Assembly (NCBI RefSeq): GCF_003334815.1
Contig: NZ_QOWO01000002.1
Length of the DNA stretch: 64,000 nt
Direction: 5' to 3' (one strand)
Origin: Escherichia coli
Lineage (GTDB): Bacteria; Pseudomonadota; Gammaproteobacteria; Enterobacterales; Enterobacteriaceae
Both the position numbers and the translations under genes were made by a program. The notes below the pieces were generated by a model. That model was given only the letters and a program-made list of their open reading frames with translations. It was not told the DNA's origin and made no database searches. Shown one piece after another: positions 2,010 through 35,255 of this stretch (positions are counted from its first letter, which is position 1; every line of letters starts with the position of its first letter).

Positions 2010-3250
2010 CAGGGTTTTACCCCCGTGTTTTCAGTTTCTACCCGATCCTGCGTTTCCATTGTCGGTTGTGCGGGCGGATCAACCTGCGCCAGACGTGGCG
2101 TGTGTGCCGGAAGCCAGCCAACCAGCGCCGGGAAGTGGCGTAAAAAGTGGAACGCCAGCACGCTTTTGGTCAGGTTCCACCAGGTGCGTTTGGGCAGCAT
2201 GGTTTCATCCACCTGCTGACAATCTGCGGCAATAATGCCGTTCAGATTATCGCGCAGCGTCTGGTTAAAATGACGATCGTGGATGATGACATTTGCTTCG
2301 AGATTCAGTGACAAACTGAGCGGATCGAGATTACTGGACCCTACTGTCGCCCAGTGATCGTCCATCAATGCCACTTTGCCGTGGAGCGGGCGGCGGCGGT
2401 ACTCAAAAACCTGAACGCCGCCTTTAACCAGATAGTTATACAGCAAGCGCGCACCGACTCTGACAATCGGCATATCCGGTTCGCCCTGAATGATCAGTTT
2501 GATCCGCACCCCGCGCCGTGCCGCTTTACGCAAGGCGTGTAAAAATCGATAGCCGGGGAAGAAGTAGGCGTTGGCGATAATCACTTCCCGCCGCGCCTGA
2601 GTGAGCATTTTCAAATAATGGCGTTCAATATCATCGCGATGTTCTTCGTTATCGCGCCAGACCAGCAATACCTGCGCTTCTCCCGGCTGGCGGTTCTCTT
2701 CCGCTTTGTGATGACGTCGCCACCAGCGTCGTGCCGCGCTCTGTCCAGGCAGGTTTTCCAGCTCAAACTGGAGAATATCTTCGACAATCGGCCCTTCAAG
2801 GCGTACCGCGTAATCCTGTTTAGCCTCTGGACCGTAGCTGGACATATGCTCGGCGGAGTAATTCAGCCCGCCAATAAAGGCTATACGCGCGTCGATCACC
2901 ACAATTTTGCGATGCATCCGGCGAAACACATTGGTGCGCATACCAAAAAGGCGAGGGCGGGGATCGTAGTAGCGGAACACTACGCCAGCTGCCGTCAGTT
3001 CATTGACAAACTCATCGCTGAGATCCGGCGAACCGTAGCCATCCAGCAAGACTTCCGCTTTAACCCCGCGTTGCGCTGCTGCCAGTAGTGCCGCATGCAG
3101 TTGTTTGCCGACGTCATCCTCAAACCAGATAAACGTTTCAAGAATGATGCGTTCTTGTGCCTCGCCAATCGCCTTAAACACCGCGGGATAATATTGCTCG
3201 CCGTTTTCCAGCAACTGGATCTTATTGCCTTCGCGCCAGCTACATTTCAT
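2009..3250 (-). CDS. clsB: Cardiolipin synthase B (phospholipase D superfamily)
   Basis: ORF track 413 aa; two HKD motifs readable (HRKIVVID...; HGKVALMDD...SSNLD). Confidence 0.9.
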
Positions 3251-4008
3251 AAATGAATCTCCGCACTTAAAGGGGCATGATCAGAAAGGTGTCGCCATGT
3301 CCGCAGCGGCAACGCGGTTGGCGCGCTGGCGCTGGCATTTTTGACGTAGATCCTGTCCAGTCGTAGTAGAGGAAATTGCACCGGAAACGTGCGCGCCGGG
3401 CGTCCGTGGGCGCGGGTAAAAATCTCATCCAGTCCGGCCTGCACTTTTAACGGATGATTAGCTTTTTGCCGCCAGTCATTGAAATCACCCGCCACCAATA
3501 CCGGTTCGCCGTCCGGTAGCTCATTCACCCATTCGGCGAGCATCGCAAGCTGCGCCTGACGGTGCGCCTCACGCAGGCCCAGATGTACGCACATCACATG
3601 AATCGCTTTTCCGGTCATCGGCGGCACAATGCGGCAGTAGAGCACGCCGCGCTTTTCCGCACCATCGACCGAAACATCGCGATTCTCATAATGTTCAATG
3701 GGATAACGCGACAGTACGGCGTTGCCGTGATGCCCTTCCGGGTATACGGCATTGCGACCGTAGGCAAAATCGCTCCACATAGTGTCGGCGAGAAACTCGT
3801 AGTGCGAGGTATCGGGCCAGTTTTCCACATGCAGCGGATGAACTTCGTGCGCGCCCATCACTTCCTGCAGGCAAACAATATCGGCGCTGACGGTACGCAC
3901 GGCGTCGCGAAGTTCCGGCAAAATGAAGCGTCGGTTAAACGCGGTAAAGCCTTTGTGAATATTGATGGTGAGCACCTTGAACGAAAATTGTTGTGTTTGA
4001 TCGGGCAT
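3247..4008 (-). CDS. ybhP: Endonuclease/exonuclease/phosphatase-family protein YbhP
   Basis: ORF track 253 aa; stop overlaps clsB start; first gene of ybhP-clsB-ybhN unit. Confidence 0.85.
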
Positions 4009-4140
4009 AATTTTCCTGTCTTTGCCTCTTATCTCATTGAAATAGTGTAGTCGGCGTCACAAAAAGGTGCGGTCTTACGGAATTTTCCGTAAAGTTCGGT
4101 ACTCTGAGTAAGTAGAGATAAATTCTTCAGGAGAGAAGCC

Positions 4141-4551
4141 ATGAAGTGGCAACAACGTGTTCGTGTCGCAACGGGTCTAAGTTGCTGGCAGATTATGTTG
4201 CATTTACTGGTAGTGGCGCTGCTGGTGGTGGGCTGGATGAGTAAGACTCTGGTTCACGTCGGCGTGGGATTATGCGCACTGTATTGTGTCACGGTAGTGA
4301 TGATGCTGGTGTTTCAGCGCCACCCCGAGCAACGCTGGCGTGAGGTGGCAGACGTGCTGGAAGAGCTGACCACGACCTGGTATTTTGGCGCAGCGCTGAT
4401 TGTGCTGTGGCTGTTGTCCCGCGTTCTGGAAAACAACTTTTTGCTGGCAATTGCAGGGCTGGCAATCCTTGCCGGCCCGGCGGTAGTGTCTTTGCTGGCG
4501 AAAGATAAGAAGTTACATCACCTTACGTCTAAACATCGCGTACGCCGCTGA
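4141..4551 (+). CDS. ybhQ: Inner membrane protein YbhQ
   Basis: ORF track 136 aa, hydrophobic helices; 3' end overlaps the convergent ybhR 3' end. Confidence 0.8.
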
Positions 4552-5619
4552 CCCTGTCGTGGCCGTTATCACCAGTAGCGGCCACAAACTATTCCACACA
4601 ATATCCAGACTCGCATCCTTCAAATAAATCTGCTTGGTAATGTCCGTAAAGTGGCGAATAGGGTTAATCCACGTCAGGTTTTGCAGCCATACCGGCATGT
4701 TTTCCACCGGAGAAACGTAACCGGAAAGGAGAATGGCGGGCATCATAAAGACAAACACGCCGATAAACGCCTGCTGTTGTGTTGAACAGAGTGATGAAAT
4801 CAACAGACCGAATCCCACCAGCGATAAACCATAAATCACCATCGTAAAGTAGAACAGCGCCAGCGATCCGGCGAAGGGGATTTGATACGCCCAGATACCA
4901 ATCGCCAGCACAATGGTGGCCTGGAAGGTGGCGACAATTAACGCCGGTACGGCTTTGCCGATGAAGATCTGCCAGGTGGTGAGCGGCGAAACCAGTAGCT
5001 GATCGAGCGTACCTTGTTCACGTTCGCGGGCGACGGAAAGTGAAGTGACGATCATTACGCCGATAGTGGTGATCATGGCGATCAGTGACGGCACCACAAA
5101 CCATTTGTAGTCGAGATTCGGGTTATACCAGTTGCGTACCACCAGCTCGCTGTTGTTAGGTTTCGGTTTTCCTTCCAGCAGCTCCTGCTGATAATTTTTG
5201 ACGATCTGTTGCAGGTAGTTGGCGGCAATTTGCGCACTGTTGGAGTTACGCCCGTCGAGGATCAACTGCAAAGGCGCGGTCTGGAAGGTATCCAGTTTGC
5301 GCGAGAAGTCAGCCGGGAAACGCACCAGTAGTAACGCCTTTTGTGTGTCGATGGTTGGGCGGATCTCCTGTGGGCTTTTCAGCAGCAGCACATGAGTAAA
5401 GGCGCTGGCGCGGGCAAAACGTTGGGTCAGCTCCACCGAATGCTCGCCGTTATCTTCATCGTAGATGGCGATGGTGGCGTTAGTCACTTCCAGCGTGGCG
5501 GCGAACGGGAACAGGATCACCTGAATTAGCACGGGTAAAATCAGAATCGCGCGGGTTTGCGGTTCGCGCAGCAACGACTGCAACTCTTTGCGGATTAACG
5601 TCCATAAGCGATGAAACAT
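4513..5619 (-). CDS. ybhR: ABC-2 type transporter permease YbhR
   Basis: ORF track 368 aa; ABC-2 permease architecture (large N-terminal loop then TM bundle); in ybhGFSR operon. Confidence 0.9.
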
Positions 5620-25251: not shown

Positions 25252-25974
25252 TTAAGAGACGTGCTGCAAAAATTCCTGCAAGCGCTGGCTCGGCGGGTTC
25301 TTGATCAACACCTGCGGATTGCCATCTTCCGCAATCCGGCCTTTGTCGATAAAGATCAGCCGCGAAGCTACTTTCTCGGCAAAACCGATTTCGTGGGTCA
25401 CGATCACCATCGTCATCCCTTCTTCAGCCAGATCCTGCATAACCTTCAGCACTTCATGGCGCAGTTCCGGGTCAAGAGCGGAAGTCGGTTCATCAAACAG
25501 CATCATTTTCGGCTTCACCGCCAGCGCGCGGGCAATCGCCACACGCTGCTGTTGACCACCAGAAAGTTCGGAAGGGTAGTGATGTGCACGTTCTGCCAGA
25601 CCGACTTTCGCCAGCAGCTCACGTGCCAGTTTTTCCGCCTCTTCTTTGTTCGCGCCACGCACGCGTAGCGGGCCAAACATGACGTTTTCCAGCGCTGTCA
25701 GATGCGGGAAGAGGTAAAACTGCTGGAACACCATACCTGCTTCCTGGCGAATCAGGCGCTCGTCAACTTTCGGATCGTTAACCTTCAGGCCATCGACAAT
25801 CAGATCGCCGGAGGTGATTTCTTCCAGTTTGTTGATGCAGCGCAGCAGGGTCGATTTACCGGAACCGGACGGCCCGATAATCACCACGACTTCGCCCTGG
25901 GCAATGTTCAAATCGATATTGTGCAGCACCTGGGTTGGGCCAAAGTGCTTGGAGACGTTTTTAAATTCAATCAC
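25252..25974 (-). CDS. glnQ: Glutamine ABC transporter ATP-binding protein GlnQ
   Basis: ORF track 240 aa; Walker [10 protein letters not shown], signature LSGGQQQR. Confidence 0.95.
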
Positions 25975-27918: not shown

Positions 27919-28566
<648 letters not shown>

Positions 28567-29960: not shown

Positions 29961-30476
29961 ATGAAAAAAATTGCATGTCTTTCAGCACTGGCCGCAGTTC
30001 TGGCTTTCACCGCAGGTACTTCCGTAGCTGCGACTTCTACTGTAACTGGCGGTTACGCACAGAGCGACGCTCAGGGCCAAATGAACAAAATGGGCGGTTT
30101 CAACCTGAAATACCGCTATGAAGAAGACAACAGCCCGCTGGGTGTGATCGGTTCTTTCACTTACACCGAGAAAAGCCGTACTGCAAGCTCTGGTGACTAC
30201 AACAAAAACCAGTACTACGGCATCACTGCTGGTCCGGCTTACCGCATTAACGACTGGGCAAGCATCTACGGTGTAGTGGGTGTGGGTTATGGTAAATTCC
30301 AGACCACTGAATACCCGACCTACAAACACGACACCAGCGACTACGGTTTCTCCTACGGTGCGGGTCTGCAGTTCAACCCGATGGAAAACGTTGCTCTGGA
30401 CTTCTCTTACGAGCAGAGCCGTATTCGTAGCGTTGACGTAGGCACCTGGATTGCCGGTGTTGGTTACCGCTTCTAA
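29961..30476 (+). CDS. ompX: Outer membrane protein X
   Basis: ORF track 173 aa; start at MKKIACLSAL (171 aa); signal peptide, C-terminal ...GVGYRF. Confidence 0.95.
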   Translation: MKKIACLSALAAVLAFTAGTSVAATSTVTGGYAQSDAQGQMNKMGGFNLKYRYEEDNSPLGVIGSFTYTEKSRTASSGDYNKNQYYGITAGPAYRINDWASIYGVVGVGYGKFQTTEYPTYKHDTSDYGFSYGAGLQFNPMENVALDFSYEQSRIRSVDVGTWIAGVGYRF

Positions 30477-30491
30477 TCACTTTGGTGATAT

Positions 30492-30526
30492 AAAAAATCC
30501 GCCTCTCGGGGCGGATTTTTGTTTTT
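30492..30526. terminator. Bidirectional intrinsic terminator between convergent ompX and opgE
   Basis: AAAAAATCCGCC-TCTCG-GGGCGGATTTTTGTTTTT: GC hairpin flanked by A-tract and T-tract. Confidence 0.85.
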
Positions 30527-32108
30527 AAGGTTTCGGGTCGAAAATATCGGTTCCGAGATGGTTGTAATCCACCTTCTGTAACTGGAAGTTGGTGATGTAT
30601 ATCGGCCCGGCTTTCTTCTCAGATATAAACGGGTATTTGATGTTAATTTCCTTCGCTTTAATCCCCGTCCACTGGGAGAAAAAGCCTAAGAAGTCATTGG
30701 CTGAGCGGCGGGCTTTAATCACACGATGCGCTTTATCGTCGCTGGAAATGACCATAAAAGGCACCTGGAAATTTTGCTGATATTTATCATCATGGGCAAG
30801 GTATTGCACGTCTTTACCGCGCTCTTTAAAGGCCAGACCGTGGTCAGAAAAGTAAACCAGCGAGAAGCTGCTGCCGCTGTTGCGTAACTGATCGTACAGC
30901 TTGCGCAGTAAATCGTCCGTTTGCGTCATGGTATAGAGATAGCACGACGTTTCTTTCGATTGCACAAAGGTTTCGTATTTTCCTTGTGTCCTGTCGCAGG
31001 CCTGCGGATGTGAGCCCATCAGATGTAGAACAATCAGCTGCGGTTGCGAGTGCTCTTGCGCCAGCACTTGAGCGGTCATATCCAGTAACGCTTCGTCTTT
31101 GGTGTTTTTATCTGCTTCAAAATTACCTTCTTTCAGGAAGTACACTTCATCTGCTCGTTTGGCGATGCTGGCGATAGCGGTATCGTATTCGCCGATTTGA
31201 CCCTGGTTGGAAAACCACCAGGTCTGGAAGCCCGCGCGATTTGCCAGGGTGACAAAGTTATCCTGAAACTGTGGTTTGCCATCGACAACGCGATTGAGCG
31301 TTAAGCCAAGCGATTTCTGCGTGGAGCCACTGGCGGCAATGTAGTCAGCAAATATCAAACCGTTAACGCTGCTGGCAAACGGGGTATTGTCCCAGTGACC
31401 GCCAAAGGCACCGAGGGCATCGCGACGCGCGCTTTCACCGATCACCACCACATAGGTCTGATACTTCGGCTTAACGGCAGTGACCGTCCAGGTATCTTTC
31501 ATTCCGGAAAGTTTTGCCATCCGTTCTTGCTCTTCAATCACCTCGTTATTATTGACGATGACATCCTTAGCAAAACGAAATACCGGATAGCCAGTATCTT
31601 TCAGTTTAAATACGCCACCCCAGGCCAGGTTTTGCACGGGAGCAACAAAAAATGTCGCCACACTGAATACCAGACACAGGCTGTCGAAGGTATTCCAGCG
31701 CGCTTTTTCATTCTCTTTTTTTCGCCTGATTGCTATTACGCCGAGCGCAAAAATAAATAAGCCGACCAGGTAGCTGTACCACGGAAAAATCGTCAGGATT
31801 TCGGTCGACTCTTCCATATTGGTGGAGTGCAATGCCAGCAATGTATTGAAATTAGGCGCGCCGTAGGCCTGAGCAAAAGGGAAATAACAAGCCGCCACCA
31901 GCGAACTGACACCGACCAGAACTTTTTGTACGCGAGGCAATGTTCGCCATAGCAAAAGCAAAATAGCCGTAAACGCAGCGGTGTAGAGCAAACTGAAGGG
32001 GTAACCTAAGCCGAGGTTAATTAATAGCGACTGTAAAAAGTAGAACGCAGTCCACGGGCTAAATACCCGGCTACGGGTAACAAGCGATTCTTTGAGGGTT
32101 AAATTCAT
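30525..32108 (-). CDS. opgE: Phosphoethanolamine transferase for osmoregulated periplasmic glucans OpgE (YbiP)
   Basis: ORF track 527 aa; N-terminal TM helices plus sulfatase-like periplasmic domain. Confidence 0.9.
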   Translation of the reverse strand: MNLTLKESLVTRSRVFSPWTAFYFLQSLLINLGLGYPFSLLYTAAFTAILLLLWRTLPRVQKVLVGVSSLVAACYFPFAQAYGAPNFNTLLALHSTNMEESTEILTIFPWYSYLVGLFIFALGVIAIRRKKENEKARWNTFDSLCLVFSVATFFVAPVQNLAWGGVFKLKDTGYPVFRFAKDVIVNNNEVIEEQERMAKLSGMKDTWTVTAVKPKYQTYVVVIGESARRDALGAFGGHWDNTPFASSVNGLIFADYIAASGSTQKSLGLTLNRVVDGKPQFQDNFVTLANRAGFQTWWFSNQGQIGEYDTAIASIAKRADEVYFLKEGNFEADKNTKDEALLDMTAQVLAQEHSQPQLIVLHLMGSHPQACDRTQGKYETFVQSKETSCYLYTMTQTDDLLRKLYDQLRNSGSSFSLVYFSDHGLAFKERGKDVQYLAHDDKYQQNFQVPFMVISSDDKAHRVIKARRSANDFLGFFSQWTGIKAKEINIKYPFISEKKAGPIYITNFQLQKVDYNHLGTDIFDPKP

Positions 32109-32379: not shown

Positions 32380-32508
32380 CTATTTATCGGAAGGTTTATC
32401 TTGCTGCGGTTTGTTGTTGACCATATCGCACAACATAGAGAGCAGCATTAACCGTACTTTAAAGGGAGAATGACTAAACACGCGCATACACCTCTTGAAC
32501 TCATTCAT
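32380..32508 (-). CDS. mntS: Small protein MntS (42 aa), manganese homeostasis; corresponds to rybA transcript
   Basis: Not in ORF track; manual reverse-strand translation gives MNEFKRCMRVFSHSPFKVRLMLLSMLCDMVNNKPQQDKPSDK*; MntR-type palindromes upstream. Confidence 0.85.
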   Translation of the reverse strand: MNEFKRCMRVFSHSPFKVRLMLLSMLCDMVNNKPQQDKPSDK

Positions 32509-32566
32509 AAGACCTCCTGACTTGCTAATCCCGTCGATCCTTGAGGGATGATTGCATTACATACAG

Positions 32567-32598
32567 ATATAGCACAGGCTATATTATATAGCTATTGC
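32567..32598 (-). promoter_or_regulatory. MntR operator(s) in mntS promoter
   Basis: ATATAGCACAGGCTATATTATATAGCTATTGC: ATAGC...GCTAT palindromes between divergent mntS and mntR. Confidence 0.65.
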
Positions 32599-32693
32599 TA
32601 AAACGTTAATTTTTTGTACCTTCGCAACTCTGGTTTACAATGTGCGCACGAAATGAGAACGCTATGTATGCGTCACCATAATGAGGAAGCACA

Positions 32694-33161
32694 ATGAGTC
32701 GTCGCGCAGGTACGCCAACAGCAAAAAAAGTGACGCAGTTAGTGAACGTGGAAGAGCACGTTGAAGGGTTCCGCCAGGTCAGAGAGGCGCATCGGCGCGA
32801 GCTTATTGATGATTACGTTGAGCTGATTTCTGACTTGATCAGGGAAGTGGGGGAAGCTCGTCAGGTGGACATGGCTGCTCGTCTGGGAGTTTCGCAACCG
32901 ACGGTGGCTAAAATGCTTAAGCGGCTGGCAACCATGGGGCTGATTGAAATGATCCCCTGGCGTGGCGTGTTTTTAACGGCAGAAGGAGAGAAGCTGGCGC
33001 AGGAAAGCCGCGAGCGACATCAGATAGTCGAAAATTTCTTGTTGGTGTTGGGCGTCAGTCCGGAAATCGCCCGTCGCGACGCGGAAGGCATGGAGCACCA
33101 TGTTAGTGAAGAGACGCTCGACGCTTTTCGTTTGTTTACCCAGAAACACGGTGCCAAATGA
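32694..33161 (+). CDS. mntR: Manganese-responsive transcriptional regulator MntR (DtxR family)
   Basis: ORF track 155 aa; stop overlaps ybiR start. Confidence 0.95.
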
Positions 33162-34276
33162 GCCTGCCTTTTTTACGCACGCTGCAAGGCGATCGTTTTT
33201 TTCAGTTATTAATTCTTGTTGGTATCGGATTAAGCTTTTTCGTGCCCTTTGCACCGAAATCCTGGCCTGCTGCTATCGACTGGCACACCATCATCACCTT
33301 AAGCGGCCTGATGCTGCTGACCAAAGGTGTGGAGTTAAGCGGTTATTTTGATGTGCTGGGGCGCAAAATGGTGCGCCGCTTTGCTACGGAGCGTCGGCTG
33401 GCGATGTTTATGGTGCTGGCGGCGGCGCTGCTTTCTACCTTTCTGACCAACGATGTCGCGCTGTTTATTGTTGTTCCGCTGACTATCACGCTAAAAAGAC
33501 TGTGTGAGATCCCGGTTAATCGGCTGATTATTTTTGAGGCGCTGGCAGTCAACGCTGGTTCGCTACTGACGCCAATTGGCAACCCGCAAAATATTCTTAT
33601 CTGGGGACGTTCTGGTCTTTCGTTTGCCGGATTTATTGCCCAAATGGCACCGCTGGCTGGCGCAATGATGCTGACGCTCCTGCTCCTGTGCTGGTGTTGT
33701 TTCCCTGGAAAGGCGATGCAATACCATACGGGGGTGCAAACACCGGAGTGGAAACCGCGGCTGGTGTGGAGTTGTCTGGGGCTGTATATCGTCTTTCTGA
33801 CGGCGCTGGAGTTCAAACAAGAGCTGTGGGGACTGGTGATTGTGGCGGCAGGCTTTGCGCTGCTGGCACGTCGCGTGGTGCTCAGTGTGGACTGGACGCT
33901 GCTGCTGGTGTTTATGGCGATGTTTATCGACGTCCATTTACTGACCCAGCTTCCAGCGTTGCAAGGCGTGTTGGGTAACGTGAGTCATCTATCTGAACCC
34001 GGGTTATGGTTAACGGCAATCGGTTTATCGCAGGTGATCAGTAACGTGCCGAGTACCATATTGTTGCTGAACTATGTGCCGCCGTCTTTATTACTGGTAT
34101 GGGCGGTAAACGTAGGTGGCTTTGGGTTATTACCCGGATCGCTGGCAAATTTGATTGCGCTACGTATGGCGAACGATCGCCGCATCTGGTGGCGTTTCCA
34201 TCTCTATTCAATACCGATGCTGTTGTGGGCGGCGTTGGTGGGATATGTTTTGTTAGTTATACTCCCGGCCAACTAG
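33158..34276 (+). CDS. ybiR: ArsB/NhaD-superfamily anion permease YbiR
   Basis: ORF track 372 aa; polytopic membrane protein; translationally coupled to mntR. Confidence 0.85.
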
Positions 34277-34287
34277 GGTCTGGCAAA

Positions 34288-34322
34288 TAAAAAAGGCGGA
34301 TTATGAGTCCGCCTTTTGCTTT
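34288..34322. terminator. Bidirectional intrinsic terminator between convergent ybiR and ldtB
   Basis: AAAAAAGGCGGA-TTATGAG-TCCGCCTTTTGCTTT. Confidence 0.85.
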
Positions 34323-34334
34323 AAGTTTTGAAGA

Positions 34335-35255
34335 TTAATTCAGACGAACCGGCATCCCGGAGCGGTTTTTAATCGCTTCATCAAGAACAACCTGATCAAC
34401 ATCTGGCTGACCGGTCACTGTCTGCACGCTCTTCGTCAGGGTAATTGGCACAATTTCCTGACCTTCAAACTGGGCTTCGGTGGTAGACAGCGGGTTATGG
34501 ACTTCAATATAACGGCTGCCGTCTGGCTCGGTGGTCGCTTTTACCGGCTCATCAATAAACTGTACGCGGGTACCGACCGGTACTTTCTCGAACAGGAATT
34601 TGATGTCTTCGTTACGCAGACGCACACAACCATGACTTACACGCAGGCCGATACCGAAGTTGGCGTTGGTGCCATGGATAGCATACAGGCGACCGATATA
34701 GAGTGCATACAGCCCCATCGGGTTATCCGGACCTGCCGGAACGACAGCCGGAAGCGGTTCGCCCGCAGCGCGGTACTCTGCGTGCATTTTGGCGGTCGGC
34801 GTCCAGGTCGGGCCTGCTTTTTTACGCTCAACTTTGGTGGTCCAGTTGATAGGCGTATCTTTGCCTAACTGACCAATGCCGATCGGCAGCACGATAACGG
34901 TGTTGGTCCCTTTCGGATAGTAATAAAGACGCATCTCAGCACTGTTAATGACGATGCCTTCATGAACGGTATCCGGCAGGATCAGCTGCTGCGGAATGTT
35001 CAGTACAGTACCGCCTTTCGGCAGGAAGGTATCCACACCCGGGTTCGCTTCCATCATATTGGAAAGCCCCATCTGGTACTCGGCGGCAAAATACTCCAGC
35101 GGCTGAGTGTTACCTTCAGGAATGGTGATCACCTGATTCTGACCAACCAGGCGACTCCCGTCGGTTGGCAGAGGATAAGTTACCGCAGAGGCGGTACTGC
35201 AAAAGCCGACAACAGCGAAGGCCGCTGCGAATAATGTTTTCAATTTCATATTCAT
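34335..35255 (-). CDS. ldtB: L,D-transpeptidase LdtB (YbiS), links Lpp to peptidoglycan
   Basis: ORF track 306 aa; signal peptide; YkuD catalytic motif (SHGCVRL). Confidence 0.9.

Follow-up and report, generated by a model that had tools for sequence, protein, structure and literature searches.

The window, the 64-kb stretch of Escherichia coli DNA analysed here, has the gene order dps–mntS–mntR–ybiR–ldtB of E. coli K-12. Across mntR and ybiR the sequence matches E. coli K-12 MG1655 at 100% identity; the RefSeq annotation of that genome has just these genes there, and the stretch was found at a coverage of at least 80% in 5,422 of 5,426 complete E. coli genomes. The pair is a documented bicistronic E. 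coli operon of ordinary, already known architecture, listed as 'mntR-ybiR' (Shimada et al. 2014, PMC3946193), and the window shows no difference from the catalogued K-12 unit in sequence, order or listed promoter (ATTACA-18-TATATT; PMC3946193). What we add to the catalogue is how far the linkage extends phylogenetically, a candidate promoter that is better conserved (TTGTAC-16-TACAAT) and weak-RBS evidence for coupling. The fixed place of ybiR behind a manganese sensor is the only functional lead on this gene. The features of the locus are as follows.

32380..32508, minus strand: mntS, 42-aa manganese accumulation protein, divergent neighbour of mntR (ORF list, RefSeq)
32556..32585, plus strand: alternative mntR promoter ATTACA-18-TATATT (consensus scan; listed for mntR-ybiR in PMC3946193)
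32569..32582, no strand: MntR box 1, palindrome ATAGCACAGGCTAT (exact core match)
32583..32609, minus strand: mntS promoter, published or predicted, -35 TTAACG at 32609-32604 and -10 TATAAT at 32588-32583 (PMC3946193)
32588..32601, no strand: MntR box 2, ATAGCTATTGCTAA (alignment across loci)
32614..32641, plus strand: candidate mntR-ybiR promoter TTGTAC-16 nt-TACAAT (from conservation; putative function)
32683..32689, plus strand: mntR Shine-Dalgarno GAGGAAG (alignment)
32694..33161, plus strand: mntR, Mn2+-sensing DtxR-family regulator, 155 aa (ORF list, NCBIfam, RefSeq)
33158..33161, plus strand: ATGA junction, ybiR start ATG overlapping mntR stop TGA (ORF list and raw sequence)
33158..34276, plus strand: ybiR, predicted elevator-fold secondary transporter of the ion-transporter superfamily, 372 aa
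34291..34317, no strand: bidirectional intrinsic terminator hairpin between convergent ybiR and ldtB (terminator scan, both strands)
34335-35255, minus strand: ldtB (ORF list, RefSeq)

MntR matched the NCBIfam equivalog NF008273 over residues 2-154 (269.1 bits against a cutoff of 153), MntS matched small_MntS (96 bits against a cutoff of 36), and the hairpin at 34291..34317 marks the operon end. At the junction (...GCC AAA TGA / ATG AGC...), the ORF list and the raw sequence confirmed the overlap described in the initial annotation, with the four bases ATGA common to the mntR stop and the ybiR start. The overlap type as such is unremarkable; the window holds three ATGA overlaps (mntR/ybiR, glnP/glnQ and ybhP/clsB) alongside five other same-strand overlaps.

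Phylogenetic extent of the pairing

We compared the locus across 80 genomes with a YbiR homologue, among the matches listed from a genome-contig scan, and called ORFs in the homologous loci, which include high-GC loci, with a GC3-aware caller. Among these 80, mntR lies directly upstream of ybiR in all 23 Enterobacteriaceae and Erwiniaceae loci, with junctions of -4 to +25 nt throughout. The ATGA overlap is present in 14 of the 19 Enterobacteriaceae loci (15/20 counting the E. coli K-12 reference), the other five have gaps of 0-5 nt, and the genes are 17-25 nt apart in the four Erwiniaceae loci. Because ATGA recurs in 14/19 Enterobacteriaceae loci and small gaps replace it in the rest, the junction is, judging by these sequences, conserved rather than accidental. 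Across the linked loci YbiR falls to 51-62% identity and MntR to 73-77%, while both flanks changed.

None of the other 57 YbiR loci among the 80 listed, from Yersiniaceae, Edwardsiella, Burkholderiales and archaea, is linked to mntR, and tblastn at E<=10 found no MntR or DtxR homologue near any of them. The linkage, whose conservation across Enterobacterales the initial annotation had left to be checked, thus holds in Enterobacteriaceae and Erwiniaceae and breaks down elsewhere, already in Yersiniaceae and Edwardsiella. MntR boxes with up to one mismatch numbered 0 at these 57 loci against 0.6 expected, in a search that covered about 450 nt before each gene together with its first 30 nt (about 27 kb in total). 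An Rfam scan of 33 unlinked loci detected no riboswitch, its sole match above the gathering score being one tRNA, and neighbour clustering with NCBIfam annotation revealed no recurrent neighbour of ybiR in the 57 unlinked loci. Neighbours outside the enteric bacteria included AraC, XRE, LacI, FolK, ParB, ApbE, PepT, Flk, HtpX, MgtE and a SaoE-like permease. In Yersinia the ybiR gene is present at 57% identity, and Y. pestis reportedly has no MntR (PMC3852070).

Within this sample, the pairing is confined to one branch of enteric bacteria, a distribution that points to one ancestral change of gene order in the lineage of Enterobacteriaceae and Erwiniaceae. We propose that the pairing has been retained since then because overlapping genes are difficult to separate; selection for co-expression would likewise keep a pair together across a deep divergence.

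Control region, co-transcription and coupling

Divergently transcribed mntS and mntR have one control region in common. The exact core of the MntR box occurs twice in the 64-kb window against 0.04 expected, and the two boxes are spaced 19 bp centre-to-centre, with box 2 forming a perfect ATAGCTAYGGCTAT in several other genera. Both boxes are kept, with at most a change of spacer, in all 23 mntR-linked loci among the 80 listed, a subset of which was aligned. The control region of mntR-ybiR thus carries the box palindrome that characterises the MntR regulon; both boxes also overlap the promoter of mntS, a known target, and hence are not specific to mntR-ybiR.

Downstream of the boxes, the TTTG and TACAAT blocks of the candidate promoter are invariant or nearly so, at fixed spacing, in 14 genera including Erwiniaceae. 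Transcription from it would start near 32648, about 45 nt before mntR, with box centres lying some 54 and 73 nt upstream of that start (-54 and -73). The alternative promoter ATTACA-18-TATATT, whose -10 overlaps box 1, is less conserved in Erwiniaceae. Two invariant MntR boxes just upstream of a conserved candidate promoter, at an activator-like distance, make manganese-dependent control of the operon possible. The mntR Shine-Dalgarno GAGGAAG (median duplex energy -6.3 kcal/mol) is invariant in the 14-genus alignment and present as such or as a one-base variant in 23/23 loci.

Signals that would serve ybiR separately were sparse. A promoter scan identified no sigma-70-like hexamer pair inside mntR, and the dip in synonymous-site variation that would mark an embedded promoter was not found in the 3' half of mntR (entropy 0.86-1.13 against 1.05 overall). 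An internal ybiR-specific promoter, named in the initial annotation as evidence that would tell against its reading, was thus looked for and neither predicted nor conserved. The ybiR Shine-Dalgarno is weak (median -4.0 kcal/mol) and unconserved in sequence and position across loci, the E. coli gene having a 4-nt anti-Shine-Dalgarno match, GGTG, four bases upstream of its ATG (-5.3 kcal/mol). By computation, then, the pair combines a conserved overlapping or abutting junction with the lack of an independent promoter or strong RBS, as in a bicistronic coupled operon. In a Salmonella RNA-seq study, mntR (3.9x) and ybiR (2.6x) were co-induced (PMC4265072).

One mRNA with coupled translation, as originally suggested for this locus, appears well supported, since no internal promoter is predicted or conserved and the ybiR Shine-Dalgarno is weak and unconserved; the promoter scan, synonymous sites, RBS and tight junctions all bear on this. 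The conserved promoter region of mntR, which also carries both MntR boxes and the promoter of divergent mntS, would drive a bicistronic mRNA on which the mntR RBS is strong and invariant. Ribosomes terminating at the mntR stop would then re-initiate at the overlapping ATG and, judging from this anatomy, supply most YbiR, so that YbiR levels would be low and follow those of MntR. It could be argued instead that ybiR is expressed largely apart from mntR, using a promoter inside that gene and a separate RBS, the overlap having no regulatory meaning. The GGTG four bases before the ATG (-5.3 kcal/mol) would suit such a scheme, as would the Erwiniaceae gaps, which imply that strict overlap is not essential, but mntR contains no sigma-70-like hexamer pair and no synonymous-site constraint in its 3' half, Shine-Dalgarno-like matches are conserved in neither sequence nor position, the gap stays at or below 25 nt in 23/23 loci, and in Salmonella both genes were induced together. 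The promoter scan and the profile of synonymous sites led us to reject the internal promoter, and we regard largely separate expression as very unlikely.

Family and fold of YbiR

YbiR matched Pfam CitMHS (PF03600; 7.5e-43) over residues 27-304. A PDB sequence search with YbiR and with a 40-sequence profile returned no match at E<=1, and we therefore turned to a fold search. The AlphaFold2 model (pLDDT 93.7) gave 40 PDB matches at E<=1e-3 in Foldseek, nearly all of them carriers of the ion-transporter (IT) superfamily, including Pho90, VcINDY, ArsB and NaS1. Its profile match is significant and its modelled fold is a two-hairpin elevator, so that YbiR can be placed confidently, on sequence and modelled structure, among the elevator-type secondary transporters of the IT superfamily, with two predicted re-entrant hairpins. 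The protein forms a family of its own, of about 360-390 aa, comprising 271 clusters at E<1e-30 that span bacteria and archaea. In the aligned sequences the motifs TND, GNPQN, SNVP and GSLAN are invariant and the YbiR-specific residues D245, D258, R336 and H348 conserved. A fold search of AFDB50 brought up uncharacterised relatives with generic names only, and our literature and database searches found no characterised family member or functional study of ybiR. YbiR stands as the founding member of a widespread family and among the remaining uncharacterised E. coli transporters. N-terminal extensions in two homologues (P0255 and P0307), considered as possible fusions, were read as mis-called starts.

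Comparison with named transporters narrowed the assignment. YbiR is homologous to the arsenite/antimonite-H+ antiporter ArsB over 323 columns (hhalign probability 96.9%, E 1.5e-10) and has the same elevator fold as the solved ArsB structure (10tp; Foldseek E 1.1e-8, TM 0.61). The four binding-site motifs of YbiR and ArsB align as TND/AND, GNPQN/SNLVN, SNVP/NNMP and GSLAN/GSLAT, so that in these motifs YbiR goes with ArsB and not with Na+-dicarboxylate carriers, whose motifs are SNT. Identity is only 20%, however, YbiR has 372 aa against 429 aa in ArsB, and its conserved D245, D258, R336 and H348 are unmatched in ArsB. No ArsB model was among the NCBIfam matches to YbiR, and neither arsR nor arsC lay beside ybiR in the loci inspected. 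The ArsB/NhaD-type label originally given to YbiR therefore holds at the superfamily level, in a family with no characterised member; an ArsB arsenite efflux permease was rejected, the homology being remote and both an ArsB model and ars neighbours being absent.

The best structural matches included the yeast phosphate carrier Pho90 (8r33; TMq 0.76, E 3.7e-10) and VcINDY (E 9.5e-10). YbiR has the two-hairpin elevator architecture in common with Pho90 and with VcINDY and NaS1, Na+-coupled DASS/SLC13 carriers of di/tricarboxylates and sulfate, at 12-18% identity, and residues 40-170 gave partial matches to Pfam Na_sulph_symp and to TIGR00785. TND and SNV stand at positions that we take to be those of the two SNT motifs of DASS carriers such as VcINDY. 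A DASS/SLC13 Na+-coupled anion symporter was likewise rejected, TIGR00785 scoring 40.3 bits against a cutoff of 198.6 and the presumed motif positions reading TND and SNV, not SNT. DASS carriers contact the carboxylate of their substrate at a site where YbiR would have an acidic residue, which would argue against a simple anionic substrate. The metal-citrate symporters CitM and CitH are the namesakes of PF03600, YbiR's best Pfam family, and no NCBIfam/TIGRFAM model of CitMHS type matched YbiR at E<=1e-3. To our knowledge, CitM and CitH are the only relatives of YbiR known to carry divalent metal-anion complexes, and for that reason they matter for a manganese role. NCBIfam and Pfam gave no match to the known E. 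coli manganese transporters MntP, MntH or Alx/TerC, and YbiR as one of these was set aside. By analogy of motifs and fold, with identity near 20%, YbiR may transport a small inorganic solute in an ion-coupled and probably H+-coupled manner.

YbiR could also be a functionless passenger decaying behind mntR. It has no known phenotype or substrate, and the protein database contains a handful of shortened E. coli versions (324-357 aa). Against decay stand the near-universal presence of the region (the 5,422 of 5,426 E. coli genomes above), a full-length 372-aa cluster of 7,255 member sequences, 20 invariant columns and the four motifs across sequences that are 31-86% identical, the breadth of the family into archaea and the confidence of the structure model. 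In the Keio collection, moreover, delta-ybiR ranks with the strongest modifiers of accumulation of the dye diS-C3(5) (PMC6704527). The passenger reading is strongly disfavoured, and we give it almost no credence.

Manganese and the pairing

The initial annotation had taken the operon to imply that YbiR acts in metal or anion homeostasis linked to manganese. On that reading, YbiR would be an overlooked component of enterobacterial manganese homeostasis that moves Mn2+, a complex of Mn with a ligand such as phosphate or citrate, or a counter-ion, in an operon tuned by Mn-MntR; we consider this unlikely. Control would run through Mn-MntR at the two boxes, activating mntR-ybiR from about -54 and -73 and repressing divergent mntS. 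In its fuller form, in which Mn-MntR represses mntS and tunes TTGTAC-16-TACAAT up while YbiR moves Mn2+, a buffering ligand or a counter-ion and so sets the cytoplasmic pool that MntR senses, the scheme seems to us rather improbable.

Regulator-first operons usually carry the regulator's own targets, as does cecR-ybhGFSR in the window; there and in arsRBC a regulator gene leads and membrane transporter genes begin -4 to +3 nt after it in the same transcript, a layout shared with mntR-ybiR. In those systems, however, the regulator is known to control the transporter in response to its substrate, whereas for mntR-ybiR one array suggests no manganese response. In the supplement to that array (delta-mntP with 1 mM Mn), mntS (0.08x) and dps (0.33x) are repressed and neighbouring y-genes are listed, while mntR (b0817) and ybiR (b0818) are absent from the list, an absence that is the whole of its evidence on the pair and to which the cutoff of the list or filtering of low-abundance transcripts may have contributed (PMC5605510).

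Linkage with a tight junction in 23/23 loci of two families (among the 80 listed), together with two boxes and a TTGTAC-16-TACAAT element that are invariant or nearly so, would fit a manganese role, but the linkage goes back to one evolutionary event and is absent, as are MntR boxes, from 57/57 other loci among the 80 listed. Chemistry gives a similar balance: the matching Pfam family is named after metal-citrate symporters, and invariant D99 with many Asn/Gln in the binding-site motifs would offer hard, cation-compatible ligands, yet no NCBIfam metal-citrate or manganese-transporter model matches YbiR. Two distant homologues adjoin divalent-metal transporters (MgtE at locus L040 and an SO_0444/SaoE-like permease at L058), but a manganese or other riboswitch was found in 0/33 unlinked loci scanned, and ybiR persists in Yersinia, which reportedly lacks MntR (PMC3852070). 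A 2023 paper on manganese homeostasis has MntP as the only characterised exporter and leaves YbiR unmentioned (PMC10197570). Upstream of ybiR in the window, we found no Rfam element, whether yybP-ykoY or another riboswitch.

The manganese lead is thus weaker than it appears, because one ancestral event underlies the linkage and no independent association with manganese accompanies it. The pairing is a weak clue to a manganese role, which stays plausible but unproven, and the homeostasis claim in its original form is unsupported. By itself, the pairing does not show that manganese or a manganese partner is the YbiR substrate. We favour as the probable reading a bicistronic coupled operon whose second product, expressed weakly and for the most part irrespective of manganese, is an ion-coupled carrier of a small inorganic solute, with the pairing dating from one ancestral event. 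Were the manganese lead true, YbiR would be a new component in a well-studied metal circuit.

Structure and expression of the mntR–ybiR unit

Gene order in the window is that of the E. coli K-12 region (dps–rhtA–ompX–opgE–mntS–mntR–ybiR–ldtB–ybiT), and the 2.1-kb stretch around mntR and ybiR, 100% identical to MG1655, occurs in 5,422 of 5,426 complete E. coli genomes (at least 80% coverage), all of which are annotated with mntS, mntR, ybiR ('anion transporter') and ldtB. MntR passed its NCBIfam equivalog model (269 bits versus a cutoff of 153), and NCBIfam identified MntS as a 42-aa ORF on the strand opposite to mntR. The overlap between the mntR stop and the ybiR start described in the initial annotation was confirmed by the ORF listing and the raw sequence.

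32694-33161, plus strand: mntR (ORF listing)
33158-34276, plus strand: ybiR (ORF listing)
33158-33160, plus strand: ybiR ATG, within the ATGA common to the mntR stop and ybiR start (junction GCC AAA TGA)
34291-34317, both strands: bidirectional terminator hairpin closing the mntR–ybiR unit (terminator scan)

This junction is structurally ordinary, as the same 64-kb window holds two more ATGA stop/start overlaps on the minus strand (glnP/glnQ, 25971-25974; ybhP/clsB, 3247-3250) and five other same-strand overlaps; overlaps of 1, 8 and 14 nt occur among moeAB, clsB/ybhN, ybhG-F-S and iaaA/gsiA. It is also already known: a genome-wide promoter compilation lists an 'mntR-ybiR' transcription unit with promoter ATTACA-18-TATATT (PMC3946193).

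Several observations together support the proposal that both genes are made from one mRNA and suggest termination–reinitiation coupling at the junction. A consensus promoter scan found no sigma-70-like hexamer pair inside mntR, and third-position entropy of synonymous codons was flat across its 3' half (0.86-1.13 versus 1.05 overall), with no dip there of the kind that a conserved promoter or ribosome-binding site within the gene would cause, and with constraint only in the first 15 codons. An invariant GAGGAAG precedes mntR (median anti-Shine-Dalgarno duplex −6.3 kcal/mol), whereas for the 18 nt 5' of ybiR the median is −4.0 kcal/mol, with neither sequence nor position conserved. The terminator lies beyond ybiR, and in Salmonella RNA-seq mntR (3.9x) and ybiR (2.6x) rise together (PMC4265072). 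Two Rfam matches below gathering score, one to STnc40 over the ybiR/ldtB bidirectional terminator (34289-34352, minus strand; 31.7 versus 45 bits) and one of rnk_pseudo/RNAI type between ompX and opgE (30434-30528, plus strand), are probably terminator-like hairpins.

Control region and manganese response

32569-32582: MntR-box palindrome 1, ATAGCACAGGCTAT, exact core match
32588-32601: MntR-box palindrome 2
32556-32585: listed mntR–ybiR promoter ATTACA-18-TATATT, refound by our consensus scan (PMC3946193)
32614-32641: candidate promoter block TTGTAC-16 nt-TACAAT, immediately right of the MntR boxes
28472-28485: the other exact MntR-box core, ATAGCACCGGCTAT, about 50 nt 5' to the start codon of dps
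27919-28422, minus strand: dps coding sequence

The exact MntR-box core occurs twice in the 64-kb window (0.04 expected). Its copy near dps fits the listing of dps as MntR-repressed and its 0.33x level in a delta-mntP microarray at 1 mM Mn, in which mntS fell to 0.08x (PMC5605510). Upstream of mntR, both boxes overlap the published minus-strand mntS promoter and are kept in all 23 mntR-linked loci described below. Conservation of the TTGTAC-16-TACAAT block, which stands back-to-back with the mntS −35 element at 4 bp, exceeds that of the catalogued ATTACA/TATATT promoter: in an alignment of 14 genera including Erwiniaceae the block is unchanged or almost unchanged and its spacing is constant. 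Should this be the true mntR promoter, transcription would start near 32648 and the boxes would lie at about −54/−73, positions that would fit an activating or neutral role rather than steric repression. The delta-mntP array lists the neighbouring y-genes ybiI, ybiJ and ybiY; mntR/b0817 and ybiR/b0818 are not among its genes (PMC5605510), which counts against strong Mn control.

Family, fold and phenotype of YbiR

YbiR matches Pfam CitMHS (7.5e-43, residues 27-304) and, partially, Na_sulph_symp; no NCBIfam model reached its cutoff, the best being a DASS subfamily (40 versus 198.6 bits), followed by partial matches to MamN and NhaB. Sequence and profile searches detected no solved structure for YbiR, and an AlphaFold2 model built on an alignment of 40 homologues (31-86% identity to the query) was confident (pLDDT 93.7, pTM 0.91). 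Foldseek matched this model at 12-18% identity to elevator-type carriers of the ion-transporter superfamily, including yeast Pho90 (TMq 0.76), ArsB of L. ferriphilum (TMq 0.61), VcINDY, NaS1, INDY, NaDC1/3 and AtDiT1. The YbiR profile also aligned with E. coli ArsB over 323 columns (probability 96.9%, E 1.5e-10), pairing the motifs TND/AND, GNPQN/SNLVN, SNVP/NNMP and GSLAN/GSLAT; the ArsB sequence used matched an E. coli record at 99.8% identity and an annotated plasmid arsB at 94%. The earlier label 'ArsB/NhaD-type permease' is thus correct for the superfamily, but YbiR itself is not orthologous to ArsB and does not belong to the DASS group.

The family comprises 271 clusters at E<1e-30, and none of YbiR's AFDB50 neighbours is characterised, their names including 'YbiR family', 'citrate transporter', 'NhaD' and 'DUF1646'. 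The literature searched held no functional study of YbiR and a single phenotype: the Keio delta-ybiR strain ranks with the knockouts that most strongly alter how much of the cationic, potential-sensitive dye diS-C3(5) accumulates, with '(none)' given as references for ybiR (PMC6704527). This result hints at an ion-flux phenotype.

Conservation of the pairing and a proposed role in manganese homeostasis

Eighty loci were fetched with the YbiR alignment from species-representative genomes, and neighbours were sought by tblastn with E. coli neighbour proteins as queries. The pairing proved a feature of two families rather than of Enterobacterales as a whole: mntR lies directly 5' of ybiR in 19/19 Enterobacteriaceae and 4/4 Erwiniaceae loci (three Pantoea, one Erwinia), but not in Rahnella, Serratia, Yersinia or Edwardsiella. 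An ATGA overlap joins the two genes in 14 of the 19 Enterobacteriaceae loci; the junction reads TAAATG with zero gap in Cedecea sulfonylureivorans and Enterobacter sp. R1, and there is a gap of 2 nt in Cedecea neteri and Siccibacter, 5 nt in Kluyvera and 17-25 nt in Erwiniaceae. Flanks vary, with opgE upstream in Enterobacteriaceae only and, 3' of ybiR, convergent ldtB in E. coli versus an efflux cluster in 12 other loci. In these 12 of 23 loci (for example L006, 5199-9098; also L010, L012-L014, L017, L018, L021-L024 and L028), the cluster lies about 30-180 nt, mostly around 100 nt, beyond ybiR in the same orientation and encodes an EmrA-like adaptor, an EmrB-like pump of the DHA2 family and an outer-membrane factor of NodT type; E. 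coli, E. albertii and Citrobacter lack the cluster and carry convergent ldtB.

Even at E<=10, tblastn found no MntR/DtxR homologue near ybiR in the other 57 loci (Rahnella, two Serratia, two Yersinia, Edwardsiella, many Burkholderiales, other Gammaproteobacteria, candidate phyla and archaea). Because YbiR of Yersiniaceae and YbiR of Erwiniaceae have diverged from the E. coli protein to about the same extent (57-62% identity), the simplest history is that ybiR was inherited vertically and became fused behind mntR once, in the Enterobacteriaceae–Erwiniaceae common ancestor.

We consider it fairly probable that expression of ybiR, in this known operon, follows the transcription and translation of mntR and stays low and largely independent of Mn, and that YbiR would be an ArsB-like, ion-coupled elevator carrier moving a small inorganic solute, not specifically manganese. 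Independent expression from an internal promoter, which has little support, is improbable, and that ybiR is a decaying passenger, likewise poorly supported, is more improbable still. The main rival, that YbiR is genuinely part of Mn homeostasis as its linkage had suggested, is unlikely but carries more weight: invariant MntR boxes adjoin the conserved candidate promoter, the pairing is deeply retained, and the Asp/Asn/Gln-rich YbiR site is cation-compatible. Against it stand all 57 unlinked loci, which lack a nearby MntR/DtxR gene; they show no MntR box upstream of ybiR (0.6 expected), no Rfam riboswitch in the 33 scanned, and ybiR neighbours unrelated to each other. Yersinia species retain ybiR (57% identity), and a review reports MntR absent from Y. 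pestis (PMC3852070). One linkage event, however long kept, is weak guilt by association for manganese, the more so as an overlapping gene pair is mechanically hard to split. What this orphan family of transporters carries is the genuine question at this locus, although the answer would not much surprise a specialist.

Neighbours at unlinked loci include a LacI-type regulator or the phosphatase Agp in Yersinia, ApbE and PepT in Serratia, and elsewhere FolK, ParB, HtpX and an ECF sigma factor. Two same-strand divalent-metal transporters directly 5' of distant YbiR homologues are isolated cases that could be chance, and a regulator-then-ybiR arrangement recurs with unrelated regulators in Edwardsiella, Ralstonia and Yersinia (locus coordinates below).

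L040, 2562-3959: MgtE, 5' of a distant YbiR homologue, WOR-3 MAG
L058, 2969-3913: SaoE/SO_0444-like Cu/Zn efflux-type permease, Methanomicrobia MAG
L037, 3368-3892: MarA/SoxS/RamA-like AraC protein, Edwardsiella hoshinae, 12 nt upstream of GTG-initiated ybiR (3905-5020)
L032, 3246-3788, and L034, 3175-3801: XRE-type HTH protein next to ybiR, Ralstonia
L027, 2827-3783: LacI-type repressor next to ybiR, Yersinia artesiana
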